Shown here: positions 36,822 to 53,897 of the stretch, piece by piece
How the letters are laid out: every line of letters begins with the position of its first letter
How positions within the stretch are numbered: position 1 is the first letter of the stretch
Assembly: GCA_024276605.1 (NCBI GenBank)
Contig: JAJRWX010000020.1
Location: 4,512-68,511 of the forward strand
DNA: 64,000 nucleotides
Source: Planctomycetota bacterium
GTDB lineage: Bacteria > Planctomycetota > Phycisphaerae > UBA1845
Direction of reading: 5' to 3'
Notes under the pieces: model-generated
Databases searched by the model: none
Told to the model about the DNA's origin: nothing
Seen by the model: only the letters and a program-made list of their open reading frames with translations
Translations under genes and position numbers: made by a program

Positions 36822-37178
36822 TTCCGCTTATGCCAAGCGGTTCACATTCTACGGAAAATAACTTAAAGGAGCTATCCCAATGCGACTACACGATAGCTAT
36901 ATAAGTTAGCGGCGCGATAGGCAACCATAATGTTGGCTAATGCGTAGGTCGAAGAACCACACTCGTTGACCAATCCTTAGTGGCTCACCCCCCATCGCTT
37001 TGTTTACCTTGCACTAAACCTTCCACGTACGCGCGTCATGACGGTCATGGCTAGTCTTCTGCTGCCAAATCGGACGGTGAATTGGGGGAATGGGTAACGT
37101 GTATTGGGATCGTTGTAACTAGCGCCCCAGTCAAGCGTTAGACGCTGATGTCACTAGTAGATCACAACGGTCAGACGA

Positions 37179-37225
37179 AGCGGGTGATGGGATTCGAACC
37201 CACGACATTCACGTTGGCAACGTGA
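37179..37225 (-). tRNA. 3' fragment of tRNA-Gly(GCC), positions 27-73 only; not a complete gene
   Basis: The minus strand reads TCACG-TTGCCAA-CGTGA (anticodon arm, GCC), ATGTC (variable loop), GTGGG-TTCGAAT-CCCAT (T arm), CACCCGC (acceptor 3' strand) and T (discriminator). No matching 5' acceptor strand GCGGGTG or D arm occurs upstream. Confidence 0.6.
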
Positions 37226-37568: not shown

Positions 37569-40500
37569 TCACCGGCAGCCGAGCTTGGCTATGTTGGATG
37601 ATGGAATGCCATTTGCTTTGTCAAACGCACCACCGGTGAATAGTGCTGGGCCATTTACGCCGTCATCGAAAACAGCCAGCGCTTGCACAGCTACCATTCC
37701 TGTACCCGTCACGCCGCCGCCCGGATCATTGCCCGGTCGACCGGAGAGGCCAACAGGTATCCATGTGCTACCAGTCCACTTGGCAAGATGGTTGACTGAA
37801 ACGCCTCCAGTAGTCATAGTGAAATCACCACCGGCGTAGAGTCTCAATCCTTGGCCAACACCGAATGCCATTAGTGTGTCCACACGATTTGCCCCCAACC
37901 CGTTATCCATCCCAGACCAGTTACCGGCATTATCCAATTTAGCAATCCTGTTGACCGACATTGTGCCAATCGTGAGGAAGTCACCACCTACATAGAGTGC
38001 AGAACCAGAGCCGTCATCGAAGACATACAGGGCATGGACTGATCCATTGATGATACCCCCGACGGCTGACCATGCGGAACCATCCCAACGGGCGAGATTG
38101 GCGGTACCGGGGACGTTGCCTGCATCGGTAAAATCGCCACCAACATAAAGCTTAGGGCCGCTGCCATCATCAAAGACGTCCATCGCAAACACTGATCCCC
38201 CATTGACACCACCTCCGATTGTCGTCCATACTGCCCCGTCCCACATCTTGATTCCGCCAGGGAACACACCACCCGCATAGAGAGCCGAACCATTGGCACC
38301 GTCATTGAAGACCGCCAACGACTCAACGATGCCGCCGACGGAGCCGACTGCACTCCAATTGGTTCCGTCCCATCGGGCTACGTTATTGGCGGTTGAGTTG
38401 CCAGCCTTCACGAAATCACCGCCAGCAAACAGTAGCGGCGGGTTCGGCTCTGCGCCATCCTCATCGAAGTTGGCTAATGCATTGACTGACGCCACGCATT
38501 GAATCCCAGTGCAGTCCATGCCACTGCCCAACGACGACCATGTTACACCGTCAAACCTTGCGACGGCGCTACTAGGGAAATTCGACTCATTGCTATCGCA
38601 CGGGCCTTTCGACGGTATGAATGAACCACCGGCATACAGGGCGGTGCCTGACCCGTCGTCGTGTACAACTAGCGCCTTTACTTCGTCGTTTAAGCCGTTA
38701 CTTAGTACCGACCATTCCGGGGCATCCCACTTAGCTACATAGCCCTGCTCGTTGAGTACACCCCCACCACCCGCAGCATCGCAGTCAGCACCATCGCCTA
38801 CTTTGCCACCAACATAGAGGGCCGCACCGTTGCCATCGTCGAATACGGTCAGCGCAGTACCAGTGGATTCGATGCCATTGCCCATCGAAGACCAAGCAGT
38901 GCCGTTCCATTGGGCAACCCGTCTTAAATTGGCTCCGCTACCTATGTTGACATCTGAGAATTGACCGCTCGCGTAAAGAATTCTACTAACGCCGTCGTCA
39001 AGACCGGCCAGAGCTAGTACCTCACCGTCGAGAGAGTTACCCAATGCCGACCATACGGCACCATCCCATCGTGCCATATTTCGTAGGATTACACTGGAGT
39101 CAATTGAGTTCTTCGGGTCGCTGAAGGTGCCGCCGGCGTACAACGCCGTGCCGATGCCGGAACCATCATCAAAAACAACTAATGAAGTAACTTTCCTACC
39201 AGCACCACCAAGACCATCATAACCGACGCGGCTAATCGTCGTACCATCCCACTTGGCTATGCTTACAAAATCGGGATTACTATCTACAAAGAAATCGCCA
39301 CCGATATAGAGCTGAGATGAGCTAGTGCCATCGTTGAACACAGCCAAATCGAGCACTATGCCATTATCAATTCCGATCCCTACCCCAATAGCCGACCATG
39401 TGCCTGTCGCGGGGTTCCACTTGGCTAAACGATTGGCGGGTGTGCCGTCACCAGTCTGGAAGAAGTCACCACCCACAAAAAGTGCGGGCGGGTTAGGGCC
39501 ATTGCCATCGTCGTCGTATGCAGCCACGGCATAAGGCGTGTTTGCGATGCCAATGCCAAAACCCATCCAGTCGCGTCCATTCCATTTGGCCACTCTGTTT
39601 ACGCTCGTGCCGCCAGCAGTTTGGAACGCGCCGACGGCGTAAAGCGCTTCACCTAATCCATCGTTCAAGTCGATGACAGCCAAGTCGAACACATTGTCAT
39701 TCACACCGTCAACACTGGTTGTGCTATCCACCAACGCATGCCATCGCTGGCCGTCCCACTTGGCGATGTTGTTAGCCGGTGTGCCACCTGCGGAGGAGAA
39801 ATTGCCAGCCACAAAGAGTGCGGGCGGGTTAGGGCCAGTGCCATCATCATCAAAGACAGCCATCGCGAAGATGTCAAAGCCCTCGAACGTGGTCGGGCCA
39901 AAGGCTGTAGCCCAGGGCTCGTCACAAGTATTATCAATCGTAATAATCCCCACGTCGGTGATGCCGTCAGGTACGGGTTCCGCGAGTGCGGATATACCAG
40001 ATTCGGTTTTGCCAGTTACAGTGATTGTCGCATCCGCAAATATTTCCGGCGTCGTGCTAAGCGGCAAGTTTACTCCGACGGCGAAGTAGCCGGTCGCATC
40101 GCTAGTCCCCGTCCCAATGGGTTGTGACGGTGGTTCGCCGTTAGGCCCGGTAGTAGGTATTTGTACCGTGATCGATGCGTTGTCGACCGGCTCACTTTTC
40201 GTGTTACGCACAAAACCCTCGACAGTGGTAGAGATCAGGTCACCGGGATAGGCAACCGTTACTTTGACGACGGATGTCGCGCCTTTGTCAGTAGCGGTAA
40301 TAAATGCATCGCCGGGGGAAATGCCGATCACGTTGATGGTGTTCGCCAGCGTTAGATCAGGATCATCGCCTACGATGCGGGCTATGTTTGCGTTACTTGA
40401 ACGGTACGTCGTCCAGGGTGACGGTAGCGTTACCTCCTGCGGTGCACTACCTGCAAAGGTAGCCAATATCATTAGCGCTCTGCGATCACCGGCGGTGAAG

Positions 40501-40940
40501 ATGGAACCGCACTCCGTAGGTGCCGCTGGATCGCAGCCAACCTGTAGCGCGATCGACTCAGGAAGCGGCGGCGGAAACGGGCTGATGACAAAAGAATTCA
40601 ACTGAAACGAAAAGACGCCGCCGGGCGTAATGCGAATGGCGTTGCTACTATAGACATAAAGCGTACCGGAGGCCGTCGTACGCGCACCGGAAAGACGGTA
40701 CACATCGTCTGCTAAAAAATCAGGGAGCATCCCCGGCCCACCCGGCCCAAATAAATCCGGCGCGGCGATATTGGAGAGCAAAAAGGAGCCATCCGACTCA
40801 ACCCGAACCGTCTGCCCGTTGATCGTCACCGACCAACGCTCGTCGAGCTGACCGAAGGCTTCTGTGGCACAGGCCGCGAGGAGGAGAGTCGCCAGCGCCA
40901 GTCGCCCGGTTATTAGCGAGAAAACATTTTGATGCATCAT
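37569..40940 (-). CDS. Secreted repeat protein: Big_2-like Ig domain plus about 13 propeller-type repeats (...ALYVGGDF...A[KR]WDG..W...)
   Basis: The track ORF is 37569..41120. The internal ATG at 40940 gives a signal peptide (MMHQNVFSLITGRLALATLLLAACATEAFG) and removes the overlap with the upstream gene. I counted the repeats by eye. Confidence 0.8.
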   Translation of the reverse strand: MMHQNVFSLITGRLALATLLLAACATEAFGQLDERWSVTINGQTVRVESDGSFLLSNIAAPDLFGPGGPGMLPDFLADDVYRLSGARTTASGTLYVYSSNAIRITPGGVFSFQLNSFVISPFPPPLPESIALQVGCDPAAPTECGSIFTAGDRRALMILATFAGSAPQEVTLPSPWTTYRSSNANIARIVGDDPDLTLANTINVIGISPGDAFITATDKGATSVVKVTVAYPGDLISTTVEGFVRNTKSEPVDNASITVQIPTTGPNGEPPSQPIGTGTSDATGYFAVGVNLPLSTTPEIFADATITVTGKTESGISALAEPVPDGITDVGIITIDNTCDEPWATAFGPTTFEGFDIFAMAVFDDDGTGPNPPALFVAGNFSSAGGTPANNIAKWDGQRWHALVDSTTSVDGVNDNVFDLAVIDLNDGLGEALYAVGAFQTAGGTSVNRVAKWNGRDWMGFGIGIANTPYAVAAYDDDGNGPNPPALFVGGDFFQTGDGTPANRLAKWNPATGTWSAIGVGIGIDNGIVLDLAVFNDGTSSSQLYIGGDFFVDSNPDFVSIAKWDGTTISRVGYDGLGGAGRKVTSLVVFDDGSGIGTALYAGGTFSDPKNSIDSSVILRNMARWDGAVWSALGNSLDGEVLALAGLDDGVSRILYASGQFSDVNIGSGANLRRVAQWNGTAWSSMGNGIESTGTALTVFDDGNGAALYVGGKVGDGADCDAAGGGGVLNEQGYVAKWDAPEWSVLSNGLNDEVKALVVHDDGSGTALYAGGSFIPSKGPCDSNESNFPSSAVARFDGVTWSSLGSGMDCTGIQCVASVNALANFDEDGAEPNPPLLFAGGDFVKAGNSTANNVARWDGTNWSAVGSVGGIVESLAVFNDGANGSALYAGGVFPGGIKMWDGAVWTTIGGGVNGGSVFAMDVFDDGSGPKLYVGGDFTDAGNVPGTANLARWDGSAWSAVGGIINGSVHALYVFDDGSGSALYVGGDFLTIGTMSVNRIAKLDNAGNWSGMDNGLGANRVDTLMAFGVGQGLRLYAGGDFTMTTGGVSVNHLAKWTGSTWIPVGLSGRPGNDPGGGVTGTGMVAVQALAVFDDGVNGPALFTGGAFDKANGIPSSNIAKLGCR

Positions 40941-40971
40941 AGGACTCCGTATTACGCGGCGACTCGATTCT

Positions 40972-42183
40972 CTACCTATCGCGGCCACCCAACTGCGGCC
41001 CTCTTGATTCCTTATCTTTTTTTCGTTTCCGAAGAATGTTCTCAACAGCCCGCTCCAGGAAACGCTCTTCCATTTGCACGAGGGATGACGCAGCTTGTTG
41101 TCGGAGTGCTTCGTCTGCATCGTTTGCCGCCATGTTCTTCAGGGCCGCCTTTAGCTGTGGGTGTATCTCGTAGTCCTCACGAGAACGAATCACCACCCAG
41201 TCCTCTCCGAACGACCAGACTAATGACTGTAATGCAGCTTTTCGAACATTCTCAAAAGGGCTGGTCATGCCTCTTAGCGCGATCTCACGGATTCGTTCTC
41301 GATGTGCAGCGTCAGTGTGGAAAGTACCTTGCGATCGCGCACCCAACCCTGCGAATGATCCCACAATCATCTGCTGGGCATCCTCGTCGAGGTCGTCGCG
41401 TTCGGCTAGTTTTACCACTTCTTCAACACCGCCAATTCCATAGACGGTTCCTAACGCCAAAACCCTCAGCCGATAGGCCACGGACGATCGACTGGTTCTT
41501 CCTTCGCCAATTTGGGATTCTAGTTTTGGAAGAGGCATGATATCTCTTAATCGTATGACTCTATTCTCAAATACTAACTCCTCGGAGCAAAAGAGGTGGA
41601 CAGCGTTTTCCAAGAAATCCTTAGCCGAAGGCCCAAACACTGCCAGTGTTTTGACGATGACCTTGTACTGGTCTAGTGATTGGGACGGATCACGCTGATC
41701 CAAGTGGGAACCGTTCCATTGCGCAAGAAGCACCACGACAGCCCTTTTGCGAATGTGTTCATTCAGTTGGGCAAGCGCTTTGGCGCAACTTGCCACTATA
41801 GACGAATCTGTTTCGATCAGACCGATCAATAATTGCTGATGTGCTCGTTCGTCATTTCGATCATTCAGTTGTCCCAGTATTGCATACAGCGTCCTTCGCG
41901 GAACTACAACCCGAAACCTAGCGTCATTTCTAAGGGCGTCAACTACAGCCGGAATGACTTCCTTTAGTGGTAATTGCTTTAGCGTATTCAGGACAACGGC
42001 GTATTGCGGGTGCAAAGACGAACTGGTAGGTTCACCATAGTTCGCACACAACTCGTCAAACATTCTTACCATTGTGCCAGAAGTATGTTCTTCTTGTGCA
42101 ACGACTTGGGTCGGCCTACCCAAACACCCGAGAATTGCTATCAGTAGCAATACCGTCGCATAGCGTGCATTAAGAAATCTCAT
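40972..42183 (-). CDS. Secreted alpha-helical (HEAT/ARM-like) repeat protein, function unknown
   Basis: The track ORF is 40972..42252. The ATG at 42183 gives a signal-like MRFLNARYATVLLLIAILGCLG and avoids overlap with the giant gene's stop. Confidence 0.55.
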   Translation of the reverse strand: MRFLNARYATVLLLIAILGCLGRPTQVVAQEEHTSGTMVRMFDELCANYGEPTSSSLHPQYAVVLNTLKQLPLKEVIPAVVDALRNDARFRVVVPRRTLYAILGQLNDRNDERAHQQLLIGLIETDSSIVASCAKALAQLNEHIRKRAVVVLLAQWNGSHLDQRDPSQSLDQYKVIVKTLAVFGPSAKDFLENAVHLFCSEELVFENRVIRLRDIMPLPKLESQIGEGRTSRSSVAYRLRVLALGTVYGIGGVEEVVKLAERDDLDEDAQQMIVGSFAGLGARSQGTFHTDAAHRERIREIALRGMTSPFENVRKAALQSLVWSFGEDWVVIRSREDYEIHPQLKAALKNMAANDADEALRQQAASSLVQMEERFLERAVENILRKRKKDKESRGPQLGGRDR

Positions 42184-42208
42184 GTCAAGCTCTCCAATTG
42201 TCCATCCA

Positions 42209-45200
42209 TCAAGGTACTGGTTGCCAATCACCAAGCGCTGGCATTGCATCAAGTATTACGATGTCCTCTCCTCCGAGGAGAGGAGGGAACAGGTCATCTG
42301 GATCGGGCGTTCGGCCTGCGGCACAGGGATCGAAGATATAGACCTGGACTCCATTGAAATATAACTCATGCCATGGAAATGCGTCGTGCCAGCTACCACT
42401 ACCTGGTTTGATACGCCACTCAAAGGGACTAAGAACGCCGTTGACGCAGGTTTGCCGAAACTCGAAGGTAATGTGAGCATCAATCGCAGGGGCAGCGGTT
42501 ACACATGGATTTCCACCGACCAGATCAAACTGAACTTCGCTGATGGAGTTGCTAACATGGGTCAAAACAGCGGATAGTGTATTTCCATTCGCACCATTCG
42601 CGGCTGTGGCGACGCACTCCGGTGCGGCAGTGGCGGCAATACAGTCGGTACAGAAACTCGGACAAACTTGTCCCGATGGACATGTAACGATGTTGCTCGC
42701 TTGGTCGTTGTAGCCGAATGTTGTACCAAAGGATACCTGTGATCCCCGAACCCCGTTCGTCATCGCGCCACTCGCCATCTTCGGGCTGACGCTGACATGA
42801 TAGGACTGAAACGTCCGGCTTGGCGAACCAGCATATGCGAAGTTACGATTGTCGCCTTGGAAGAAGTCCGTAATGCCCGGTAGCCACCCTGTCGAAACCG
42901 CACGGCAGGCGATAAACGCCTTGTATCGTATCTCGACTTCGCCGTATTCAACGATATTAAGCAACACTTTGTCTTCGCAGGATATTCCGTTCTTGATAAA
43001 CGAGAGTGTCAACTCGACAGGACCGGGTGTCAGCGCTTCGACCCACGAATCGTAGGTATTGTACACACCCGTTGACAAGTAGAAATCATCGCGAAGATTT
43101 GCGCCCATCGGCACCAATACCCAGTCATCGTTGAACGGGGCCGCTGCGGCGGGGTTGATCGCCAGCAGACGGACCGATCCAGTGCCTCCTGTTTGAGTAA
43201 TTGTGATTGCAGAACCCGCCAAAACTCCGTCGTCTTCGGGAAGAACGAAGGCATTACACGCAATCAGACCATTTAGCGCAATTGAAGTTCCATCTGCAGT
43301 CAATGGGGACGCATCCGCCTTGTCGGCAACCGGATCACCGGTAGCATCCAACTTGCCTTCATCGAAGTCGTTATTCGTCGCAACCTTCAAACCCGGCAGT
43401 GTTTCCTCCGCATTCTCAGCGATCCCGCCAATTTCCATGTCCACATCCACCACCGTGATCTTGACAATGTCCGTACATGTGCTCGGACCGTTTTCGTACT
43501 TGAGCGTCAGCGTCACATCACGAGCGGAGGCGCTTGCAACGACACCCTCTACCCAGACATTCATAGGCATGTCCGCCAGGGCATTGCACCCTGCTTCGCT
43601 GGGCGTGGCCCAGCAGGCGGGGAGGGTGATCGGGTCGCTACGATCTGGAGCTTTGTAGACCTTTACCTTGCTCGAACTGGTCGATAGGGTAACTTTCCAT
43701 TCGGTCGCACCCGAGACCGATAGAGTCAGCATACGAAGGTCATCTTCACCAGCCGTCGGAGAGCCTTCGTCCTTGTCAGGTGTTCCGTTGTTGTTGTCGT
43801 CATCATCATTGACGCACAAGAATCCCCCAGGGTTTTCTTCGTCTTCGTCCGAGATACCAGCCAAGTCTAAGTCCGGTTCGATCGCCTCGGCCATCTTTGG
43901 GCCGATAGTGATGTCAGACGGCGGACATTCGCGCTCGGCCATAGCGGTGTAGACGATGTAGTAAGTGCCGGGCTTTGTTGTGAGAATCGTGGCCACGGAA
44001 CCCGATCCTTTGACCGTCGTGCCGTCCGGTTTGGTAACGGTCCACTTGTAGTTGGGCGTGACTGCGGGAATGGGCATCTTTGCCGTACAGTCCACGCGCT
44101 TGATGCCGCCGCTGTCCACGACGCCGCTGGCGGTGAAGGTGATGGTGTCTCCGACGCAGACCGGATCGCGGTCCACATCAATCATCCCGCCGCTCAGTGA
44201 GCCATTGTCCAGGCACCCTTCGCAATCCTGCGAACAGCACTCGCCGTTTCCGCAGCACCGCTCCGGCGGGCAGCAGGTTGTCCCACCGCAGCATGGTTCA
44301 CTCGCGGTGCAACATCCCTCTCCGCAGCATTCGACTTCGCAGCAGTGATCGCCGCAGCATAAGGTTCCCGCAGCATTGCAGGGGCAGCAAGGGTCAGGAT
44401 TGTTGCAACAGGGATCGTTAGCACCTTCCCCGCAGCATGGGTCTGCCGCAACGAGCAAGATTGACGACGCTACAGAATCATCTTCATCAGCGGGGGCAAC
44501 GGCTGCTACTGCAGCGGCTGCGCAACACGGGTTGTCCGGGTTGCAGCAGGGATCGGGATTGCCGCAGCACGGGTCATTCGAGTTGCAACAAGGGTCATCG
44601 CTGCCACAGCATGGATTGTCTGGATTGCAACATCGATTCGGATTGCCACAACAGGGATCGTTCGAGTTGCAGCATGGATCTTCACTGCCACAGCAGGGGT
44701 TGTCAGGATTACAACAACGATCGGGATTATTGCAGCAGGGACCGCCCCCATTGCAGCACGGGTCCGGGTCTTCACAACAGGGATCGCCCTGACAGCAGCG
44801 GTCATAACAACAACCGCTAGCATCTCCTTCGCATTCATCGTATTCGCAATCGCCAGTAACCGAATACGGTGGGCAGTTGCAGCCCCAACCGGCTAGTGAC
44901 AAGCCCGTGCCGGGATCGCTGACGATGCGCGAGCCGTCACCGGTGACCTGGCCCGTGGCTACGATCTCGAAGCGCGATGTGCCGTGGTTGAAGCTCAGGA
45001 AGTACGCAATCGACCCGGCGGGTAGGCCGGACATGTTCGGGTAGGTGATTTGGATTGGTGGATCGAACATCGCGCCGCTCGGCTGGAGTGTCCAGGAGAA
45101 CGGCGGTGACGCACCGTCGGGGATCGGCATGGGGATGTCGTCGGCATGCACCTGGTTGAGGTAGATCGGCTGGCCGTCGGGCGCGGGTTGGCCACTAGCG

Positions 45201-48100
45201 AGCGTCATCGATCCGGCCTTGACAACCATCTTCAACCCCTCCATGCCTTCGACCTTCAGGATGGTATCCGGGTCGCCGGGCGTGGCGCTGTAGGTGTTCT
45301 TCACGTTGTTGGGATTCAGCGACGGCAGCAGGACCGGCGTGGGCAGCGAGTTGGCCGCATTGGGAACAACGATGGTTTCGTAGTGAAGGGACGGGAAAGT
45401 GCCCGGCGGTTTGTCGCATTGAGGGGTTGTGCAGGTCGGACCGCCAATGTGGACCTGACCCGATCCGTCCACGTACAGATCGGTCTTCCCCGAACCGGAC
45501 ACATTGTCGAACTGAAATCGTCCGTTTATGTCGGTAACCGTGTCCGGCATGAACACCCCGCCGACCGCCAGTCTGCAAGTCGCGCCTCCAATGGGCTGAC
45601 TAGCGTTGTTGAGCACGATGCCGGAAAAGCTGGTGACCACGGCCTCGTCGCGCACCAGGCCAAAAATCACGAACCGGGCGGGCTGCATGGTCGGGTTGGC
45701 CACTGGCCTCACTTCGACGACGTTGTTGCCCCAGTCGGGGCCGAGTGTAAAATCTACCTGTGCGTGACCGGTGCGACCGGTATATACCGTCACGCTCTGC
45801 CCAGTAACGATGTTTGGCTGGCTGACCGGGTCCGATTCACGGCACGGGAGCGGCGAAGTGTTTCCTGTAACCTTTCCCCCTCCTTTTACAACGGTAAATG
45901 TCACCGGTACCGGGCAGACCCCGTTGCAAGCGTCGCTGACCCAGACGCGCAGCGGCTCCGGCGCCGGGCCGCCGGCTTCGGCTCGCTGGTTGTTGCCCGT
46001 GCCGATGTTGATCTGATTGACCGGCGCGGGCGCAGCCGAGGCGCAGAAGGCCACTGTCCCCGCGATGCTCATCGACTTCACCTCGACGCGGTTGTTCCCG
46101 CAACCAGCGTCGTAGCCGAGCCGCCAGTATGCGCGAGCCTCGCCATTGGCGTCGGTGCGTACCTGGAACATCATGCTGCCGGGGTCCATGTTGCCGGGCA
46201 TCGGCGTGATCTCCGCCGCCGTGGCCCCGAGCCGACCGTTGCTGCGTGTCACATCGAAGGTGACAACCTTGTTGACGAACGGGGTGCCGTCCGCGCGGGT
46301 CATCCGAACGACGATCGGTGATGGCAACACCGTCCCCATCTGACCAGTCTGAGCGTTACCGGATACGACGATCATTTGCGGCGTGCCGGAAGGAATCGCC
46401 ACCTGAGTGACGATAATCTGCTTGGTGATGGAGTTGCCCATCTCGTCCGTGGCCGTCGCGTCGATGACGGTTGGCTGGTCGATCGGTCCCAGGGGTACGC
46501 TCGGCGCGAAGAAGGTTCCGTTGTTGCCGATCCCGACATCCACGATAGCATCGATGGGATTGGCCATGTCTCCGTTGACGACGAGTTGTACCTGCAGGCC
46601 CATGAACCCGCTGAGCATATCGCCGACGCGGCCCGCCACATCGGTCGTAGTCGTGGTGATCTGCGCGGCGCCGGTGGGGAAGTCGATGAACAGATGCGGC
46701 GGCTCGGTATCGTGTGTCACGCTCGTAACCGTCGGAGGACTGCGGACACCGGCGCAGGTACTCAGGGTCGTGAAGAATATGTGGCTGACCCGATCGGAGA
46801 TAAGTGGTAGATCAATGGTGAAGGTGCCGTTGGAAACCGGGGCCGTGAATGTCCCCGCCGGACTCACCGTTTCGACCGATGTGCCTCCGGGGGCGTTGCC
46901 CGTGATCGTGACCGATGTAGCCGTCGTCATGGTCGTGTGTGCATTAAGTGTTGGCACGGGCGGCGGAATCAGCCCCGTCACCACCGGCGGCACAGTCGGA
47001 GCGATTAGCAACTCACCTGATTGATCGGCAAGGGCGTTACTGATGTTGATGGTGTAGGTGCCGCATTGGGGAAGCGGCGGCACAAAATTGTAAACGGCGG
47101 TCATGCCAAATGGCCCACCAACTCCCGATGTCGGGACTATGAGATTATTGCCGCCGTCTACAAGAAAGCAGGTGCGTTCGTTTATCCTCAAATCGGAAAT
47201 TATCTCATTGAAGTCGATTACGATTCTGTCGAACGAGCCTAGGAGTCCACTGCTTGGCTCTCGAATCGCGGTCACAATCGGCGGTGTTCCATCGGTAGTG
47301 GGAAGCGTTCGTCCTTCTGCCAGGCGGAAGATGGCCACATCTTGGGCATTGACAATTCCATCAACATTCAGGTCAGCCCGACTGTCGAACCTAGCCCCCC
47401 CTATAACACTCGGCAGGGCATCACGAATAATAATTCCATCCGGTCCATCGACCACGCCGTCTCGGTTGGCATCGCCTTGAAGGATGTTGATCCGAAACAC
47501 CGCCTGCCCGCCGCGAACACCGTCGCCCGAAGGCAGCACAGCACTCAAGGGATCAGCGATCTCGCCGTCCAGTTCGTTACCGACAATGTCCGTTACGGTG
47601 TAGTCCACCACCACCGTGAGCCGATCGTCGCGGACGGGTGAAGCGAAACTCACTGTCAGGATGTAGGTAACGACGTCGTAGGATGAGGTGAAATTGGTAA
47701 CGTTTCCAGCACCTACCGTCCATATGGTAATGGCCCCTGTTGGAATCGGAGTCGTTACAGGCTCCGTAAAGCCGATCTGAATTTCACGCAACCCAAGATT
47801 ATCCACGATCCATCTACCCGGCGTAGGCGACAGCCGATCAATCCGGGGTGGCGTTGCATCGAGGGCACGGCGTGGTATGGGCTTCCGCGACTTCTTGGAT
47901 AGTACGATTGACTGCCGAACGCTTGGTCGCGATTTTTTGGGCTTGGTTGATACCTGCGCGACCGAGTTATCGCCGGAAAGTTGTGTCTTTGACACATGCG
48001 GATCCAGCGGACCATCATTAAGTGTAGCAACAGCAAGCACATCAACACCAAATAACAGCGTTATACCAAACCATGACCAGAAGATGACACTTTTTATCAC
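42209..48100 (-). CDS. Giant (1963 aa) secreted multidomain protein with SbsA/Big-like Ig domains, a dockerin-type EF-hand pair, a CarboxypepD_reg-like domain, a Cys-Cys heptad region, a PKD-like domain and an unknown C-terminal region
   Basis: N-terminal hydrophobic anchor or signal. GDANRDGVVDGPD and ADLNVDGIVNAQD dockerin repeats. Big_1-like VVSGNAQTGQMGTVLPSPIVV. Its ATGA overlap with the upstream gene indicates an operon. Confidence 0.85.
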   Translation of the reverse strand: MIKSVIFWSWFGITLLFGVDVLAVATLNDGPLDPHVSKTQLSGDNSVAQVSTKPKKSRPSVRQSIVLSKKSRKPIPRRALDATPPRIDRLSPTPGRWIVDNLGLREIQIGFTEPVTTPIPTGAITIWTVGAGNVTNFTSSYDVVTYILTVSFASPVRDDRLTVVVDYTVTDIVGNELDGEIADPLSAVLPSGDGVRGGQAVFRINILQGDANRDGVVDGPDGIIIRDALPSVIGGARFDSRADLNVDGIVNAQDVAIFRLAEGRTLPTTDGTPPIVTAIREPSSGLLGSFDRIVIDFNEIISDLRINERTCFLVDGGNNLIVPTSGVGGPFGMTAVYNFVPPLPQCGTYTINISNALADQSGELLIAPTVPPVVTGLIPPPVPTLNAHTTMTTATSVTITGNAPGGTSVETVSPAGTFTAPVSNGTFTIDLPLISDRVSHIFFTTLSTCAGVRSPPTVTSVTHDTEPPHLFIDFPTGAAQITTTTTDVAGRVGDMLSGFMGLQVQLVVNGDMANPIDAIVDVGIGNNGTFFAPSVPLGPIDQPTVIDATATDEMGNSITKQIIVTQVAIPSGTPQMIVVSGNAQTGQMGTVLPSPIVVRMTRADGTPFVNKVVTFDVTRSNGRLGATAAEITPMPGNMDPGSMMFQVRTDANGEARAYWRLGYDAGCGNNRVEVKSMSIAGTVAFCASAAPAPVNQINIGTGNNQRAEAGGPAPEPLRVWVSDACNGVCPVPVTFTVVKGGGKVTGNTSPLPCRESDPVSQPNIVTGQSVTVYTGRTGHAQVDFTLGPDWGNNVVEVRPVANPTMQPARFVIFGLVRDEAVVTSFSGIVLNNASQPIGGATCRLAVGGVFMPDTVTDINGRFQFDNVSGSGKTDLYVDGSGQVHIGGPTCTTPQCDKPPGTFPSLHYETIVVPNAANSLPTPVLLPSLNPNNVKNTYSATPGDPDTILKVEGMEGLKMVVKAGSMTLASGQPAPDGQPIYLNQVHADDIPMPIPDGASPPFSWTLQPSGAMFDPPIQITYPNMSGLPAGSIAYFLSFNHGTSRFEIVATGQVTGDGSRIVSDPGTGLSLAGWGCNCPPYSVTGDCEYDECEGDASGCCYDRCCQGDPCCEDPDPCCNGGGPCCNNPDRCCNPDNPCCGSEDPCCNSNDPCCGNPNRCCNPDNPCCGSDDPCCNSNDPCCGNPDPCCNPDNPCCAAAAVAAVAPADEDDSVASSILLVAADPCCGEGANDPCCNNPDPCCPCNAAGTLCCGDHCCEVECCGEGCCTASEPCCGGTTCCPPERCCGNGECCSQDCEGCLDNGSLSGGMIDVDRDPVCVGDTITFTASGVVDSGGIKRVDCTAKMPIPAVTPNYKWTVTKPDGTTVKGSGSVATILTTKPGTYYIVYTAMAERECPPSDITIGPKMAEAIEPDLDLAGISDEDEENPGGFLCVNDDDDNNNGTPDKDEGSPTAGEDDLRMLTLSVSGATEWKVTLSTSSSKVKVYKAPDRSDPITLPACWATPSEAGCNALADMPMNVWVEGVVASASARDVTLTLKYENGPSTCTDIVKITVVDVDMEIGGIAENAEETLPGLKVATNNDFDEGKLDATGDPVADKADASPLTADGTSIALNGLIACNAFVLPEDDGVLAGSAITITQTGGTGSVRLLAINPAAAAPFNDDWVLVPMGANLRDDFYLSTGVYNTYDSWVEALTPGPVELTLSFIKNGISCEDKVLLNIVEYGEVEIRYKAFIACRAVSTGWLPGITDFFQGDNRNFAYAGSPSRTFQSYHVSVSPKMASGAMTNGVRGSQVSFGTTFGYNDQASNIVTCPSGQVCPSFCTDCIAATAAPECVATAANGANGNTLSAVLTHVSNSISEVQFDLVGGNPCVTAAPAIDAHITFEFRQTCVNGVLSPFEWRIKPGSGSWHDAFPWHELYFNGVQVYIFDPCAAGRTPDPDDLFPPLLGGEDIVILDAMPALGDWQPVP
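44210..44890 (-). repeat. Coding repeat: 26 vicinal Cys-Cys pairs, mostly CC-X5 heptads, including a 28-aa super-repeat
   Basis: Translation reads ...CCNPDNPCCGSEDPCCNSNDPCCGNPNRCCNPDNPCCGSDDPCCNSNDPCCGNPDPCCNPDNPCC, then an Ala-rich linker, then ...PCCGEGANDPCCNNPDPCCPC...CCGNGECCSQDCEGC. A 21-nt periodicity is visible in the DNA. Confidence 0.9.
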
Positions 48101-50445
48101 TGGATCATCCCCTCTTGCACAGAATGTGTCGCACTGCGACTACGAAGAACTATTGAGCCAGCGGTGACAACCAGTAATGCCATCATAAAGAGTCCCCACT
48201 CTGATACGGCAGGTATGGGTATTTCGCATTCACCCTGCGCGCTAGTGCATATCGAACAGCCACCCTGATGCGTGCCAATCAGCGCCGCGCATTGTGTTGG
48301 TGTCAAGCCGTCCTGGCACGTACTATCCAGCAAGCAGCAAGCACCCATGACATCATTCGCGCAAGTCGTGCAGGTGCCTTGAAAGCTGCCACCTTGCTCC
48401 GTACAAGCGGTTAGAGTAATGGCATCCTGACAAGTATCACTTGGCAGACAACATGCGCCGGTAGCTTCTGCACAAATCGACGCATCACCTTGATGCGTAC
48501 CGCCCAGCACCGCACACTCCGCCTCCGTGATCGACTCCTGACAGGTGCCGTCTGATAGGCAGCAGGCCCCGGTGACGCCAAACGCAGGCGGACCGCTTGG
48601 CGGGGCCGGAAAGTCATCGATGAAGGTGAAAGTGCCACCTGTCGCATCAGCCAGCGCCTGGAAAAAAGTCGCATCCGGCACACCAGTGCCTAGCAAGGTA
48701 CCCGTCTCCGCATCCACTTTCCCGGTCACACGACCTTGGCTCAGATCGCCCCAGAGCCTCGCCAACACAACAGCATTGCCGATCGTGTGATCGCACACCT
48801 TTTGTTGCCAGGAGTCGGGATGAAACTCACCGCATGCTTCGCCGAACGGGCTTCCACCAAACTGCGGAAGCAGAACGCGATCTCCGGCGCACGACCCGTC
48901 GCTATTGTTCTCCTCGCCGTCCGTGCTCACGCTGATTTCCAAGCTCTTGTCTGCAGCCACAGGAAAAGCCGCTAGCAGTGCGTCCACAGCACCGCACAAG
49001 GACTCAGCCAACGGCGTCGAGCCGGAGCAGTTCACTCCTTCCAGTGATTCCAATGCCACCTTGGCTGTTGCTTCGTCCACGAATCCGACCGTCAAGGGAG
49101 TTGGTTCCGTACCCGTGAATATCCAGACGGCCACGGACGATCCCACGGGATTCTGAACAAAGAACGACATCACATCGGAGATTGCCGTTTGGCGCGCCCT
49201 CTCGCATCGCGTCGTGCTGTCGTCGAACGGCGTTTGCATCGAACCCGTGCGGTCTAGCAGGATGATCCGGTGCATCGCGTGGCAGGGTGGATCGAGATCG
49301 GCGCAAAGCACGCCACCTGTCCAGACTTCAGTGGCGCCCTGGCATTGACTTTGCAATACATCCCGGCACGGGGCGAGGTTGGGATCGCAACACGCACCGA
49401 TGGGCAGTCCCGGCCCGCAACCGCCCGCTTCGATTTCATAGGCCGTAATGAGGTCGTTCGACACCGAGCCTCGGGGATCCGTCCGCACCCACACAACATC
49501 GGTTGGAGCGAAGGTGTTGGAATCGCAAGCCATATCTCCCAACCAACCATTTCCGTTGGCGAAAATAGTGCCGGGGAGCAACTCCCCAGAGACTGTATCC
49601 GGTGTCTTTCCGGTACGAATAATATGACTACCTCCGTCATCGGTCAGATACAGTTTGTCGCCACCAAAGATCAAGCCCGTATTGTTTGCAAGGTCGAAAT
49701 TGTTTGGGAGGCCAGCACCAACCGCTGTCGCATCGAACCCTTCAACGAATGTGCCATCCGTGCGAAATACACCTATGTTTTCGTTGACAGTATCGCTGCA
49801 CCAGATTTCGTCAGTAATTGGGTCATACAGCAAACCGTCGAGGCGGCAGAAAGTAAAGAACCTCTGTCCATTTGCAGGGTTGGTAATGTCGAAGGGGACA
49901 GTAAACATGAGTGTCACTGTGTCGTCGTCAAAATCCCAAAAGTAGATAGGCATGTCCGCGTTGACTACAGCGGGGTCGCCGCATACACCAAAGCCGGAAC
50001 CTCCGATGCTTCTTTGCGTACCGATCCATAAGCCGTTCCGGTTGGTGTCATACGACATCGCCGCTGGCCACTCGGCTATTCCCGTGTCGAAAGTGCTGAT
50101 GAGTGCCCCATCTACAGGTGAGATTGTGTATATGTTAGAGTCACTACACCGGTTGAAATACAGCTGCGTACCACCAAAGGCCAAACCAATGCTGCAAAAC
50201 TGGCTGCCAATAGTAGGCTGTGGTGATATGGTCGCAACAGGATCACCAACGGCTCCCCGTGCATGAGTCGCGCCCAACCCGAACACCGAAGCCATCAGGG
50301 TCAGCGCAAAGCCAACATGGCGCATACCATAGCCTCTCTGGAGCGTACAAGTTTCGCAACAATAAATGTGCATGTTGTTCCCTCTTTCAACAGACCTTCT
50401 AACCCTACCCATCAATCTTTCTAATGCTCCACTCGTCAAGGGCAT
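48097..50445 (-). CDS. Secreted vWA-domain protein with four GACC Cys-rich modules and an IPTL-CTERM-type anchor
   Basis: MIDAS-like ILLDRTGSM. The module GACCx(2-3)[DS]xC...GGxxQG...C occurs three times at the C-terminus and once mid-protein. The tail is IPIPAVSEWGLFMMALLVVTAGSIVLRSR. The likely start is ATG 50325 (MRHVGFALTLMASVFGLGATHA). Confidence 0.8.
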   Translation of the reverse strand: MPLTSGALERLMGRVRRSVERGNNMHIYCCETCTLQRGYGMRHVGFALTLMASVFGLGATHARGAVGDPVATISPQPTIGSQFCSIGLAFGGTQLYFNRCSDSNIYTISPVDGALISTFDTGIAEWPAAMSYDTNRNGLWIGTQRSIGGSGFGVCGDPAVVNADMPIYFWDFDDDTVTLMFTVPFDITNPANGQRFFTFCRLDGLLYDPITDEIWCSDTVNENIGVFRTDGTFVEGFDATAVGAGLPNNFDLANNTGLIFGGDKLYLTDDGGSHIIRTGKTPDTVSGELLPGTIFANGNGWLGDMACDSNTFAPTDVVWVRTDPRGSVSNDLITAYEIEAGGCGPGLPIGACCDPNLAPCRDVLQSQCQGATEVWTGGVLCADLDPPCHAMHRIILLDRTGSMQTPFDDSTTRCERARQTAISDVMSFFVQNPVGSSVAVWIFTGTEPTPLTVGFVDEATAKVALESLEGVNCSGSTPLAESLCGAVDALLAAFPVAADKSLEISVSTDGEENNSDGSCAGDRVLLPQFGGSPFGEACGEFHPDSWQQKVCDHTIGNAVVLARLWGDLSQGRVTGKVDAETGTLLGTGVPDATFFQALADATGGTFTFIDDFPAPPSGPPAFGVTGACCLSDGTCQESITEAECAVLGGTHQGDASICAEATGACCLPSDTCQDAITLTACTEQGGSFQGTCTTCANDVMGACCLLDSTCQDGLTPTQCAALIGTHQGGCSICTSAQGECEIPIPAVSEWGLFMMALLVVTAGSIVLRSRSATHSVQEGMIQ

Positions 50446-51659
50446 GTCAGCGGCCCTGATGCTGCAAGAAGTTCTCCTGAGAAATCAGTGATGGCGTTGC
50501 TGACATTTATCGTGTATGTGTCACATTGAGCGAGCGGCTCCAAGAAATTGTAAACTGCGGTTCTCCCAAATGGTCCGCCTACAGCAGTTGTTGGAACCAC
50601 GACATTTCCAAACCCATCCACGAGAAAACAGGTATGCACAGTGATCCGTGGGTCGGAAACTATCTCATTAAAATCAACAATGATCCTGTCAAAATCCTGT
50701 TGTTCGACCGTTGGTTCGCGTATTCCCGTAAGTACGGGTGGCACATTGTCCGTTGCGGGGAGCTGGTTGCCGAATGCGGCTGCTATTATGTTGGCATCCG
50801 CCGCATCCACGCATCCATCACCATTCAGATCAGCCATCGCATTGAAACCTGTATCGCCATCACACAAGCCAAGCGAATCATTGACAATGGCTTCATCTGC
50901 TGCGTTTACAACACCGTCGCGGTTGGCGTCGCCTTGCAGAACGCGAATCCGAAATACACCCTGCCCACCGTTGATGCCATTACCCGAAGGAAGCACCGCG
51001 TTTTTGGGGTCGAGTATCTCGCCATCGAGCGGATGGCCAGCTACATCCTCTATCGTGTAGTCCACCACCACCGTCACCTGATCGTCGCGCAGCGGCTGGG
51101 CGAAAGCCACAGTCAACACAAACGTATCCGGGTCGTAGCTCGTCGTGAAACCGTTGACCGTACCGCCACTGAGTAACCAAACATCCACGGCATCAGTTGG
51201 CACGATCACCGGTTCCGAAAAACCAATCTTCACTTCCGTCAGGCCAATATCATCCACGACCCATTCCCCCGGCGTGGGCGCAAAGATAACAATCTGCGGT
51301 GGCCCCTGACCAAAACCAAATCGAGCCTGAAACCCTGCGAAGTCACGCAGGTCGATGTCCGTGTCAGGGTCAAAGTTTCCAGGATCACAATTGGAACTGA
51401 CGCTGCCACCAGTGGGACCGCTGAGGCAATCAACAAATGTTACGAGGTCAACTAGGTTGACCTCGCCGTCAAAGTCAAAGTCACCGGGAAGTTGTGCATA
51501 TGCCACTGAGCTAAAGAATACGCTCGCAACTATTACTGCAATACTGTTGATTAGTTTCCGCCTCAATCCACTTCCTCCTCTACGCGCACACCACAACTGC
51601 AAAGCGCGGCTCTCCCTAATGGAGATAAACACCATCTGTGCGTAGCGCGCTCGCACCAT
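50436..51659 (-). CDS. Secreted protein with two dockerin-type EF-hand pairs; paralogue of residues ~85-370 of the giant protein
   Basis: GDFDFDGEVNLVD...DPDTDIDLRD, and GDANRDGVVNAAD...ADLNGDGCVDAAD. Alignment by eye to the giant protein is colinear over about 290 aa. Confidence 0.8.
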   Translation of the reverse strand: MVRARYAQMVFISIRESRALQLWCARRGGSGLRRKLINSIAVIVASVFFSSVAYAQLPGDFDFDGEVNLVDLVTFVDCLSGPTGGSVSSNCDPGNFDPDTDIDLRDFAGFQARFGFGQGPPQIVIFAPTPGEWVVDDIGLTEVKIGFSEPVIVPTDAVDVWLLSGGTVNGFTTSYDPDTFVLTVAFAQPLRDDQVTVVVDYTIEDVAGHPLDGEILDPKNAVLPSGNGINGGQGVFRIRVLQGDANRDGVVNAADEAIVNDSLGLCDGDTGFNAMADLNGDGCVDAADANIIAAAFGNQLPATDNVPPVLTGIREPTVEQQDFDRIIVDFNEIVSDPRITVHTCFLVDGFGNVVVPTTAVGGPFGRTAVYNFLEPLAQCDTYTINVSNAITDFSGELLAASGPLTCP

Positions 51660-51719
51660 TGATTATTTTTTTGGCAATCTTCACGAGTCACACCCTCAGA
51701 CCATCCAAAACCTTCTTAT

Positions 51720-52685
51720 TCATCTTCGTGACGTCAAAAGACCATCATTTTTACCAAACACGACGGTCCCCACAGCCATGATTAAAGAACACATCACGAT
51801 CACGCCCCACTCGGAGACCGTCGGAATCGTAGCCGGGTCAATAACCCGAATCGTGCCGGGCGTAGTCGTAAACGAAACCGATGCTCCATTACCATCAATC
51901 AGCGCGGACGACGAGGTAAGCTGAATGGTGAAGTCGCCAACAGCATCCAATGGTACATCAAAAAACACCTGCGCGAGTACATCGTTCACATCATCGACGG
52001 CCTGCACGGTGGAAAAGTCGTCCGTGTTGGTCGTAACTGAAACGCCTCCCGTACCGTTGTCGGCAATCACACTGAAAAATGGATCGCGGGTCGCGCCGCT
52101 TGCGGTGATGAAATTCTGCTGGTCGAAGAAATTGGTGAAACCCGCATTGGCTGTCACCGTGCCAACCGCGCCGGATTCAGGCGTGATGTCCACATCGACC
52201 GTATAGCTTGATAGTGGCGTTGTGTTGTCGCGGAGCAGAAATAATACGGATACCGTTTGGCCGGAAAACGCTGTAGTGGCAGGCATTTCGACGATGATGC
52301 GCTCAGTCCCAGCCACGGTCTGTATCGCCGTGGTCGTTCGAGAAGGTGAGCGACCTTCGCGCTTAGCCTGTCGAAACAGGGCTACATCTAATGCGTTGAC
52401 TGTGCCGTCGCCATTTAGGTCGGCCTGCGGATTGAAATCAGGCTGGCCAATGCTACGCCCAATTGATGCACGAAGTGTTATTGCAGAAAATAGTATCGAA
52501 TCATCATGGGAGGTGGGAATATGAAGCTGTGCAGCTGCCACCGTAGTGGCCGTCAAAAATATCGACCACATACATACGACGATATACCGCCCTTTACCTC
52601 GCACGAAGTCTCCTTCCCGGCTCGGCACAGCATTTACTAATGTACGGCCCAAACTATGGATTAATCCATAGTCAAGGTAACACAT
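51720..52685 (-). CDS. Surface protein: dockerin-like repeat, cohesin-like beta domain (tentative) and an IPTL-CTERM-type anchor
   Basis: ADLNGDGTVNALDVALF, a ~150-aa beta-rich domain, and the C-terminal IPTVSEWGVIVMCSLIMAVGTVVFGK followed by basic residues. Confidence 0.7.
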   Translation of the reverse strand: MCYLDYGLIHSLGRTLVNAVPSREGDFVRGKGRYIVVCMWSIFLTATTVAAAQLHIPTSHDDSILFSAITLRASIGRSIGQPDFNPQADLNGDGTVNALDVALFRQAKREGRSPSRTTTAIQTVAGTERIIVEMPATTAFSGQTVSVLFLLRDNTTPLSSYTVDVDITPESGAVGTVTANAGFTNFFDQQNFITASGATRDPFFSVIADNGTGGVSVTTNTDDFSTVQAVDDVNDVLAQVFFDVPLDAVGDFTIQLTSSSALIDGNGASVSFTTTPGTIRVIDPATIPTVSEWGVIVMCSLIMAVGTVVFGKNDGLLTSRR

Positions 52686-53222: not shown

Positions 53223-53897
53223 CTACTCAGCCATACCTCCACGCCAAACGCAAGGATTATTATTACCACAGCCGCCCTGCCGTGTGCAACTGTAATTAGT
53301 ACCATGACCACCTTCACAACTTGCGGCATTGCCATATTGGCAAACACAATTGCCGGTGGCCAACTGCCTGTAGTTCTTTTCGATAACAGATGCAGCTACT
53401 GTAGAATTCTTCGACGGCTCGAATACTGCGATGACAAGCCGATCATAGAATGACTCATCCATGTTGAAATCGAGCTCAGTTACCTCATCGGAAACAACAT
53501 CCCACCTTGTCGCATACTCAGCAGTGAAATCAAAGACGAATACGTCCTCGACCGTGCCGGCTGCGTTTTCTCGCGTCACTTCAATGATTCGATTGTTGTC
53601 GTTGTAATTATACACGTCCATGTAACCGTTGTCGTAAACTACCTTTTGAAGATTGCCTAGTTCATTATAGATGAATCGACCGCTATCCGACGCCAACCCG
53701 ATCGATGTAATGCGCCCGTGGTCCTCAACGAATACTTGTAAACTAATAGGCTCGGTCACCCGTGCATCATCGACAGACACAATGGTTTTGGCTGTCTCGC
53801 TAATTCCAGAAGTCTGACCGCATGCCTGAACAAATATGGATACCATTACCGCAAGCCCTAATACCAAAGTAAGACGCTGCCATGACTTAACCATCAT
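53223..53897 (-). CDS. Lipoprotein with a Cys/Gly-rich C-terminus, function unknown
   Basis: 224-aa ORF with a signal peptide and lipobox (LAVMVSIFVQAC). A strong RBS (GGGAGGA) lies about 8 nt upstream of the ATG. Confidence 0.7.
   Translation of the reverse strand: MMVKSWQRLTLVLGLAVMVSIFVQACGQTSGISETAKTIVSVDDARVTEPISLQVFVEDHGRITSIGLASDSGRFIYNELGNLQKVVYDNGYMDVYNYNDNNRIIEVTRENAAGTVEDVFVFDFTAEYATRWDVVSDEVTELDFNMDESFYDRLVIAVFEPSKNSTVAASVIEKNYRQLATGNCVCQYGNAASCEGGHGTNYSCTRQGGCGNNNPCVWRGGMAE

Follow-up and report, generated by a model that had tools for sequence, protein, structure and literature searches.

We analyzed a 64,000-nucleotide stretch of DNA from an uncultured planctomycete of the class Phycisphaerae (assembly GCA_024276605.1, contig JAJRWX010000020.1, positions 4,512 to 68,511 of the forward strand; called the window below). 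Our subject is a cluster of six open reading frames (ORFs) at 37569-52685 of the window, which together form a candidate system for displaying large proteins on the cell surface. All six are on the minus strand, and we refer to them in the order of transcription as P0001 to P0006. An initial annotation, made from the sequence alone, had described these ORFs as an operon of secreted proteins with gaps or overlaps of at most ~110 nt. We found all six at the positions given there, and the spacing is consistent with that description when the likely translation starts are adopted.

P0001 (51720..52685), the putative anchored socket protein, has a signal peptide, half of a dockerin, a domain with a cohesin fold, and a tail made of the motif IPTVSEWG, a transmembrane helix and basic residues. 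P0002 (50436..51659) has a signal peptide, an N-terminal dockerin-like module (51318-51491) and a head in which a dockerin lies between two Big_5 domains (50445-51323). P0003 (48097..50445) contains a signal peptide, a beta-propeller (49291-50241), a domain resembling von Willebrand factor type A (vWA; 48616-49272), Cys-rich modules (48226-48585) and a tail with the motif IPAVSEWG (48100-48219). P0004 (42209..48100) is a giant of 1963 amino acids. It carries a head, an Ig-like stalk, a block of Cys-Cys repeats and a variable C-terminal region. P0005 (40972..42252; probable start ATG 42183) is a HEAT-repeat lipoprotein. P0006 (37569..41120; probable start 40940) has a lipoprotein-like signal, an N-terminal Ig-like region and a propeller of ~13 repeats.

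All six proteins look exported. Signal-like N-terminal segments were read from the translations of all of them, and those of P0005 and P0006 are lipobox-like (ILGC and LAAC, respectively). The later starts taken for these two proteins (M24 in P0005 and M61 in P0006) were likewise read from the sequences. P0001 probably starts at GTG 52604, which is preceded by a Shine-Dalgarno-like motif, GGAAGGAG, and P0003 probably starts at M41, as in the stored database protein. A scan of the cluster proteins against NCBIfam contributed nothing.

We found that P0001 contains a domain predicted to have the fold of a cohesin. We built an AlphaFold2 model of P0001 with an alignment of its homologues and compared the model with the PDB using Foldseek. 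The predicted local distance difference test score (pLDDT) was above 90 across residues 70-285. The first 31 PDB matches were all cohesins (E values from 4.7e-10 to 4e-5), and unrelated Ig-like folds appeared from rank 32 on. The top match was 5n5p_A (E 4.7e-10; TM-score relative to the target, TMt, 0.70); 6kgf, 2vn5 and 1aoh were also matched. Among the cohesins matched are those of Ruminococcus flavefaciens ScaB, Clostridium acetobutylicum CohA2, C. cellulolyticum, and C. thermocellum CipA and OlpA; for chains with a single cohesin, the target TM-scores were 0.62-0.70. The domain spans residues ~121-283 (51837..52325, minus strand), and in the model it is a nine-stranded jelly-roll beta-sandwich of cohesin topology. 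At the level of the predicted fold, the identification as a cohesin holds.

This relationship was visible in the fold and not in the sequence. The Pfam Cohesin profile (PF00963) did not match the domain when it was searched alone, at a threshold as loose as E<=10, and NCBIfam also gave nothing. Comparison by hhalign of a 40-sequence profile of P0001 (alignment A1) with the genome's own Pfam-positive cohesin gave a probability of 0.5%, that is, no similarity. The initial annotation had called the domain cohesin-like and had considered this its weakest step; the description is borne out by structure and finds no counterpart in sequence profiles. A database of 5.8 billion clusters held 39 homologues of P0001, with identities of 46-79% in the best local alignments, and none of them has a functional name.

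N-terminal to the cohesin-fold domain, P0001 has a single calcium-binding loop, DLNGDGTVNALD (52368..52424, minus strand), which equals the second half of a type I dockerin. Pfam Dockerin_1 matched this loop at profile positions 2-20 only (21.7 bits; cut-off 22.9), and the A1 profile matched residues 23-55 of the dockerin 2y3n_B (E 5e-7). The loop is missing from distant orthologues. With one loop only, P0001 is not a full member of the type I dockerins, and the pair of loops assigned to it in the initial annotation is not there.

Full dockerins are present in the heads of P0002 and P0004, each of which matches the type I dockerin profile (PF00404) and has two F-hand loops. P0002 matched Big_5 (E 5e-10) and Dockerin_1 (39.1 bits, E 9e-10, at 50781-50933). 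The corresponding head of P0004 comprises residues 77-372 (46985..47872, minus strand) and has its dockerin at 47330-47476. Dockerin_1 scored 21.4 bits on the whole giant and 28.8 bits in a scan of the genome, so the dockerin previously ascribed to the giant is present. Big_5 was matched in both proteins. The two heads are paralogous (57% identity over 291 amino acids), and within this genome the head is restricted to these two proteins. Both calcium loops (DANRDGVVN..D and ADLNxDGxVN..D) were kept in 28 of 28 aligned heads. Most of these 28 dockerins also keep a pair of cysteines (in ...G.C.G... and ...DGC...), which probably form a disulfide; in P0004 and a few other heads both cysteines have been lost together.

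P0002 had been described as a double-dockerin protein, and three members of the cluster as carriers of paired calcium loops. The central dockerin of P0002 is clear from Pfam. Its N-terminal module had no direct Pfam match; it shares 37-47% identity with C-terminal modules found in ~20 proteins of the genome, which are themselves matched by Dockerin_1, and it is a dockerin by this transitive homology only. Paired loops are thus found in P0002 and P0004 but not in P0001.

The gene for the cohesin-fold protein and a gene for a head-bearing protein are tightly linked. We compared the genomic contexts of six homologues, ten loci on contigs taken from one genome per species (almost all labelled Phycisphaerae or Phycisphaerales) and eleven loci in related genomes. 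These gave 25 distinct loci, mostly from Phycisphaerae metagenome-assembled genomes (MAGs). The cohesin-fold gene directly adjoined a head-bearing gene in 22 of the 25, and in one more the two genes were within 7 kb of each other. The two loci with no head gene hold the weakest P0001 homologues (28-32% identity). The pairing persisted at 30-40% identity, and one genome (G013) contained three separate paralogous pairs. The head-bearing proteins, which we call cargo, were from 364 to 2826 amino acids long, and the domains behind the head included Ig-like, TSP_3, HYR, collagen, FG-GAP, RHS and PAD domains.

The rest of the cluster was conserved less regularly. The vWA gene P0003 joins the core pair in the nearer clade, and in one sub-clade the first two genes are in swapped order. 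The HEAT gene follows the C-terminal module of the giant, and the propeller gene P0006 is only partly conserved across the loci. Co-conservation is therefore strong for a core of the anchored cohesin-fold protein and one or more dockerin heads, extended by the vWA gene in the nearer clade, but not for the six genes as one set.

Other cohesins of this genome also tend to lie near dockerins. Of five further sites in the genome with a Pfam-positive or near-positive cohesin, four have a dockerin within 8 kb. The chance expectation is ~0.10 per cohesin site (31 dockerins in 4.5 Mb), and by our own arithmetic the binomial p is ~5e-4. The Pfam-detectable cohesins with a dockerin less than 8 kb away are at C27:23194-25797, C98:71168-78827, C24:13195-20906 and C66:2170-3384 (contig:positions). 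Because each of these cohesins has a dockerin so close to it, the genome may contain several independent loci of the socket-and-plug kind. The cohesin on contig C24 is a 243-amino-acid protein with an IPTL-type tail.

We also noted ~20 further proteins, encoded on eight contigs and in nine of the loci compiled here (L062-L070), with a C-terminal dockerin akin to the N-terminal module of P0002. Among them are four right-handed beta-helix proteins, an FG-GAP/UnbV protein, a matrixin-like peptidase and a purple acid phosphatase. Together, the dockerin-tagged proteins of this genome amount to a wider dockerin-tagged exoproteome.

P0001 and P0003 end in tails of the IPTL-CTERM type, as the initial annotation had proposed. 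The tail of P0001 is at 51723..51830 (minus strand). The IPTL-CTERM profile (PF18203) scored 19.3 bits on P0001 and 18.2 bits on P0003, both just under the cut-off of 20.8; the motif, the hydrophobic helix and the basic residues are plainly visible in both tails. A precomputed PF18203 match exists for 8 of the 39 P0001 homologues. In this genome, 14 ORFs have the motif [IV]P[TA][VIM]S[EQ]WG followed by a helix and a basic end, and one has a classical PEP-CTERM tail. The IPTVSEWG-type tails are spread over the assembly, with examples on ten contigs including C24 and C50.

We found that the type of tail changes among orthologues of P0001. Distant orthologues end in VPEP or IPEP tails of the PEP-CTERM class, in variants of these, or in a C-terminal dockerin that takes the place of the anchor. 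Orthologues of this last kind look adaptor-like. Because the tail is of the IPTVSEWG type here and classical PEP-CTERM in distant orthologues, we take the P0001 tail to be a putative exosortase-class signal, and the IPTL-type tail appears to be functionally interchangeable with an exosortase signal. As far as we could find, such an interchange on orthologous proteins has not been described in the literature.

The genome has two exosortase-family genes (200 and 184 bits), with EpsI and export genes as neighbors. One (C52:57283-58044) is a fusion with a nucleotidyltransferase and has EpsI after it; the other (C44:33224-34006) is beside a polysaccharide export gene. Nucleotidyltransferase-fused exosortase ORFs of ~600-700 amino acids were seen in some of the tail-bearing genomes, but the correspondence was imperfect and this lead was dropped. 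A third kind of C-terminal, sorting-like tail is found on cargo. In five loci (L050 to L053 and L058) the cargo ends in a Cys/Gly-rich CG..CG.MG motif that precedes a hydrophobic helix and a cluster of Arg residues, a tail that resembles MYXO-CTERM. In these loci both partners would be anchored.

With moderate confidence, we propose that the cluster encodes a surface display system built on a socket and plug of the cohesin-dockerin type. P0001 would be exported and kept at the cell surface through an exosortase-class signal, consisting of IPTVSEWG, the hydrophobic helix and the basic residues. Its cohesin-fold domain would be the socket, and the two-loop, calcium-binding dockerin in the head common to P0002 and P0004 would be the plug. 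We propose that P0004 is held on the cell by non-covalent, calcium-dependent docking, since the giant starts with the dockerin-bearing head and P0001 could supply the anchored cohesin-fold socket. From there P0004 would project its Ig-like stalk, its block of Cys-Cys repeats and an exchangeable C-terminal module.

Several points weigh against this proposal and limit how strongly we put it. The descent of the P0001 domain from true cohesins is unproven because the domain has no sequence similarity to Pfam Cohesin or to the Pfam cohesins of the same genome. Beta-sandwiches of the jelly-roll type can also arise, or be recruited, to bind other ligands, and TM-scores of 0.62-0.70 with a root-mean-square deviation of 5-6 Å are a good match, not a tight one. 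Planctomycetes have many dockerin-like EF-hand modules, frequently with no cohesin, and these may be mere calcium-stabilized linkers. One socket faces two heads here, and P0001 itself bears half a dockerin. Gene adjacency is a sign of co-inheritance and shared function, not of direct contact; we infer physical binding of the cohesin fold to the dockerin, as we do exosortase processing of the tail and the role of the C-terminal module. The surface location is assumed, in a planctomycete with a diderm envelope. Both exosortases score below every Xrt subtype cut-off. Exosortases were found in 56 of the 61 relatives surveyed, so there was no discriminating correlation with the IPTVSEWG tails, and because exosortases are near-universal in the order, no particular one can be assigned to these tails. 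Finally, in a scan of 36.7-54.2 kb for promoters and terminators the counts were at the level of shuffled sequence, so the scan is uninformative about operon structure.

A rival explanation is a cluster of secreted or surface proteins that involves no docking. The P0001 domain would then be a generic beta-sandwich that binds glycans or matrix or is S-layer-like, and the dockerins would be calcium-stabilized linkers. The genes would be neighbors through co-regulation and joint export, with P0001 perhaps an accessory protein or export helper of the giant. The lack of a sequence-level cohesin signal in P0001 fits this explanation, as does the excess of dockerins (31 matches in the genome) over a very few cohesins. 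In addition, a 312-amino-acid IPTL-CTERM protein of Methylomirabilis, mela_00855, was experimentally localized as an S-layer protein (PMC8671808), so a protein of about this size with such a tail can itself be an S-layer subunit. However, the fold match is specific, with cohesins filling the first 31 ranks ahead of other beta-sandwiches. The cohesin-fold gene is also in tight, one-to-one adjacency with one particular dockerin head in 22 loci while the remainder of the cargo is free to vary, and some orthologues swap the anchor for a dockerin, as adaptor scaffoldins do. We therefore regard an arrangement with no docking as possible but rather unlikely.

We found that the giants are polymorphic. 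The alignment of homologous giants with P0004 starts at residue ~15 and stops either at ~1557 or already at ~1030-1080; past that point the proteins are unrelated. For example, the giants of two loci (L001 and L006) share 71% identity up to the junction but have unrelated sequences from there on. The junction is preceded by the conserved motif C-x-D-x-V-x-[IL]-T-V-V-[DQ]-V-D. In P0004 the variable region (42212..43429, minus strand) follows the TVVDVD junction at residue ~1557. The variable parts of other giants contain PAD (E 1e-36), DUF6531 with RHS repeats and an RHS core (E 1e-50), or FG-GAP. On the middle and C-terminal pieces of P0004 itself, Pfam gave at most weak hints of Ig-like, CarboxypepD_reg and PKD domains.

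The last 246 residues of P0004 (42212-42949, minus strand) form a DUF3238-like domain, and relatives have Pfam matches to DUF3238. The domain was present in 204 protein clusters, in many cases as the C-terminal part of large proteins that are otherwise unrelated, among them an RHS protein and Cys-repeat proteins. GDxRxF and HDxFPxxE motifs are invariant or nearly so across the family. Its profile matched PDB entry 3c5p_A (E 4.9e-15), which is annotated as 'unknown function', and there was no mention of DUF3238 in the literature searched.

P0005, the next gene, appears to travel with this module. Its description as a HEAT-like secreted protein was supported by a Pfam HEAT match of 26.4 bits, above the cut-off. 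P0005 has only 2 homologues among the 5.8 billion clusters. In three unrelated loci (L059, L072 and L075) an exported, P0005-like HEAT gene lies 7-26 nt after a free-standing copy of the P0004 C-terminal module. The identities to the module and to P0005 fall in parallel in these cassettes (63%/51%, 47%/34% and ~32%/25%). The start of one free-standing copy, P0089, coincides exactly with the TVVDV junction motif. At the loci that encode giants, the gene after the giant differs from one locus to another. We also noted that the gene next to the module and HEAT pair of L059 (11840-13210 of that locus, 456 amino acids) ends in an IPTL-type tail.

Polymorphic toxins of the Rhs/WapA and CdiA families have a conserved N-terminus, a sharp junction and a variable C-terminal (CT) part, and orphan CT-immunity cassettes accompany them. 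The giants share the conserved N-terminal region and the variable C-terminus after a junction, together with a downstream partner gene that co-travels. By this analogy, the P0004 module and P0005 show the pattern of effector-partner cassettes of polymorphic toxin systems. We suggest that the DUF3238-like tip and its HEAT partner are a candidate effector-partner family and that the two would act as a pair that also exists as a free two-gene cassette. The initial annotation had favored adhesion or capture. Such a role is plausible, but the polymorphic C-terminus, the partner gene and the orthologue with RHS repeats point at least equally to an exchangeable effector.

The effector could in principle serve contact-dependent antagonism. 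P0004 would then be a polymorphic toxin on the cell surface, comparable to wall-anchored WapA/Rhs proteins and to CdiA, with a DUF3238-like toxin domain and with P0005 as an immunity protein of the envelope. This explanation refines the display system and does not exclude it, as the cohesin-dockerin pair would merely hold the toxin on the cell. It is favored by the conserved N-terminus joined to a variable C-terminus, by the replacement of that C-terminus with DUF6531, RHS repeats and an RHS core in one orthologous giant and with PAD in another, and by the variable gene after the giant. The joint travel and divergence of module and HEAT gene in three free cassettes, one starting at TVVDV, resembles orphan CT cassettes. 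The invariance of the HD..E and GDxR motifs hints at an enzyme, and the cluster lies on an island beside restriction-modification genes (below). However, DUF3238 has no known activity, and the annotation of its one solved relative, 3c5p, is no guide. In the RHS protein P0135 the DUF3238-like domain comes after an Ig-like domain and not directly behind the canonical cleavage motif of the RHS core. Many stand-alone members of the family bear a signal peptide or a lipoprotein signal, as ordinary secreted proteins do. Neither delivery machinery nor receptor-binding logic was identified, and P0005 could equally be a chaperone, an inhibitor or a docking partner. Because the family has no known activity and many of its members look like ordinary secreted lipoproteins, we consider a toxin with its immunity protein doubtful.

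A polysaccharide-degrading complex like a cellulosome or amylosome is very improbable and was rejected: the cohesin-fold and dockerin parts are present, and some of the genome's other dockerin-tagged proteins are beta-helix proteins whose fold is pectate-lyase-like, but there is no glycoside hydrolase, lyase or carbohydrate-binding module in the six proteins, as the initial annotation had noted for glycoside hydrolases and as the Pfam and NCBIfam scans confirmed, or in the cargo of more than 20 related loci.

In the display system proposed here, P0003 would be a second protein on the same type of tail, combining a propeller, a vWA domain and Cys-rich stalk modules. Its AlphaFold2 model had a pLDDT of 83. 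VWA_2 scored 20.8 bits on the whole protein and 24.1 bits on the excised domain, both under the cut-off of 27. The related profile PF13519 is precomputed on homologues of P0003, and P0003 has a D-R-T-G-S motif. In the model, residues 352-570 consist of alternating beta and alpha elements; the fold search with the whole protein was dominated by the propeller. This alpha/beta domain is consistent with a vWA domain. The propeller itself (49291-50241) matched the glutaminyl cyclases 3nol and 3mbr best (TMt 0.70), and NHL domains were also found by Foldseek. Its best matches (TMt 0.65-0.70) were to glutaminyl cyclases of the plant and bacterial types, and one possibility suggested by the model is that the propeller head is enzymatic instead of purely adhesive.

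P0006 would be an accessory propeller lipoprotein. It matched Rax2 (E 5e-12) and DUF5122 (E 2e-8) in Pfam, and we counted 13 marks of a W(D/N)G..W repeat, in agreement with the ~13 repeats reported earlier. Its N-terminal region (residues ~65-400), which is not propeller, recurs downstream of giants in four of the related loci (L001, L006, L015 and L049).

We found that the cluster lies between two direct repeats. The repeats are 224 bp long and 93% identical, and they bracket 30,083 bp. The first copy (37002..37224, minus strand) contains the 3' 46 nt of tRNA-Gly(GCC) and 178 nt of downstream flank, and it marks the lower boundary of a putative island. The second is on contig C105 at 71819-72042 (5308-5531 of locus L046), which is equivalent to 67308-67531 in window coordinates and lies outside the window. 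Between the repeats are the six genes, a small YD-repeat lipoprotein gene, a type III restriction-modification operon and a gene for a UvrD-like helicase. The small lipoprotein-like ORF (53223-53897, minus strand; 224 amino acids) is just upstream of the cluster; Pfam matched RHS/YD repeats in it (E 2.8e-5), its C-terminus is Cys-rich, and it was not conserved in the related loci. No tyrosine integrase was found between the two repeats. ARAGORN found no intact tRNA on the contig, both repeat copies being 3' fragments, and an intact tRNA-Gly is present at the homologous site of the same-genus genome G002. A fragment of an rve_3 (DDE) transposase lies just outside the repeats, at the contig end.

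The distribution of the cluster is patchy. Two genomes of the same genus were among those compared, and the full-length cohesin-fold family was absent from both; it was present in ~11 of the 61 relatives. Synteny with G002 ends at 32.7 kb. Related loci are flanked by restriction-modification genes, by primase/DUF3987 genes, or by Dam, ImmA and HTH genes. The repeats, the absence from same-genus genomes, the patchy presence and the neighbors of the restriction-modification type together lead us to suggest that the cluster is accessory DNA and is probably horizontally mobile within the family. The whole unit would be carried on a ~30-kb island bounded by the tRNA-Gly-fragment repeats. The argument for an island is from the repeats, the same-genus absence and the break in synteny, not from a complete mobile element. 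Two short contigs (L012 and L013) with close homologues of the cluster are binned in MAGs of Gemmatimonadota and Anaerolineales, whereas the longer contigs are all from Phycisphaerae. Either an island-like segment has been binned wrongly in these cases or it has been transferred.

Cohesin-dockerin docking is best known from the cellulosomes of Gram-positive bacteria and is a common tool of protein engineering. Non-cellulosomal pairs have been catalogued, and to our knowledge almost none has been functionally tested. The pair described here is a compact candidate from a diderm planctomycete, with a domain of ~165 residues, a head of ~290 residues and unusually strong genomic linkage. Fold-level searches detected a cohesin that the sequence models tried here missed, and for this reason counts of cohesin-less dockerins in planctomycetes may mislead. 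The interchange of IPTL-CTERM and PEP-CTERM tails on orthologues bears on what sorts IPTL-CTERM proteins. The exchangeable tip with its co-travelling HEAT partner also offers a new DUF3238-like effector candidate with a solved but unexplained structure (3c5p). A bolder speculation, which we think improbable as a whole, is that in Phycisphaerae the cryptic pair is a general exosortase-anchored socket for exchangeable giant effectors, used here for a contact-dependent weapon with new DUF3238-like toxin and HEAT immunity families. If true, this would be the first cohesin-dockerin-tethered polymorphic toxin and the first functional role of IPTL-CTERM sorting in planctomycetes. We found no earlier description of a cryptic cohesin-fold socket on an IPTL/PEP-CTERM tail, of the dedicated Big_5-dockerin-Big_5 head, or of the polymorphic giant with its partner cassette.

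In mechanism, the arrangement predicted here comes closest to that of cellulosome anchors such as C. thermocellum OlpA (3ul4), in which a small surface-anchored protein has a single cohesin and the genes are clustered. The likeness extends to the type I pairs of cellulosome producers, such as that of C. cellulolyticum (2vn5); these systems provide the best structural matches, and their partner proteins have a two-loop dockerin detected by Pfam Dockerin_1. Unlike these, P0001 has no sequence similarity to the cohesin family, and its host is a diderm planctomycete. Cellulosome anchors use an SLH domain or a sortase signal, whereas P0001 has a predicted exosortase-class C-terminal tail. The dockerin is internal here, with a Big_5 domain on either side, at the N-terminal end of the cargo, and the cargo is a giant that is non-enzymatic or has no assigned function, in contrast to the glycoside hydrolases of cellulosomes.

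The giant and its partner resemble the Rhs/WapA and CdiA proteins in having a long conserved N-terminal region, a sharp junction, a variable module and a variable small gene directly downstream. There are free cassettes of module and partner that start at the junction motif, and one orthologue is a true RHS protein. In contrast to those systems, the DUF3238-like module has no known toxin activity, the partner is an exported HEAT lipoprotein, there is no type V, VI or VII secretion context, and attachment would be by cohesin-dockerin docking.

The tails share with PEP-CTERM/exosortase and IPTL-CTERM signals the C-terminal motif, the hydrophobic helix and the basic cluster, and exosortase genes are present in the genome. 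Both tails are just under the cut-off of PF18203, and IPTL-CTERM has no established cognate enzyme. The Methylomirabilis protein mela_00855 is a similar-sized IPTL-CTERM protein that has been localized to the cell surface (PMC8671808).

The closest published idea is the 'planctosome', a surface multiprotein complex postulated on computational grounds for the Nemodlikiaceae (Phycisphaerae) by Andrei et al. (2019, ISME J; PMC6461901). Its parts are Pfam-detectable cohesins on a 2,210-amino-acid scaffold anchored by a lamin-tail domain (LTD), an adaptor, and M12B and M14 peptidases (PMC6461901). Like the planctosome, the system proposed here is a complex of non-cellulolytic cohesin and dockerin proteins from Phycisphaerae, and both proposals are purely computational. 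Unlike the planctosome, it would have no peptidases, and it would use a cryptic cohesin-fold socket in a protein of ~300 amino acids with an IPTL/PEP-CTERM tail, a dedicated head as the plug, and a polymorphic cargo.

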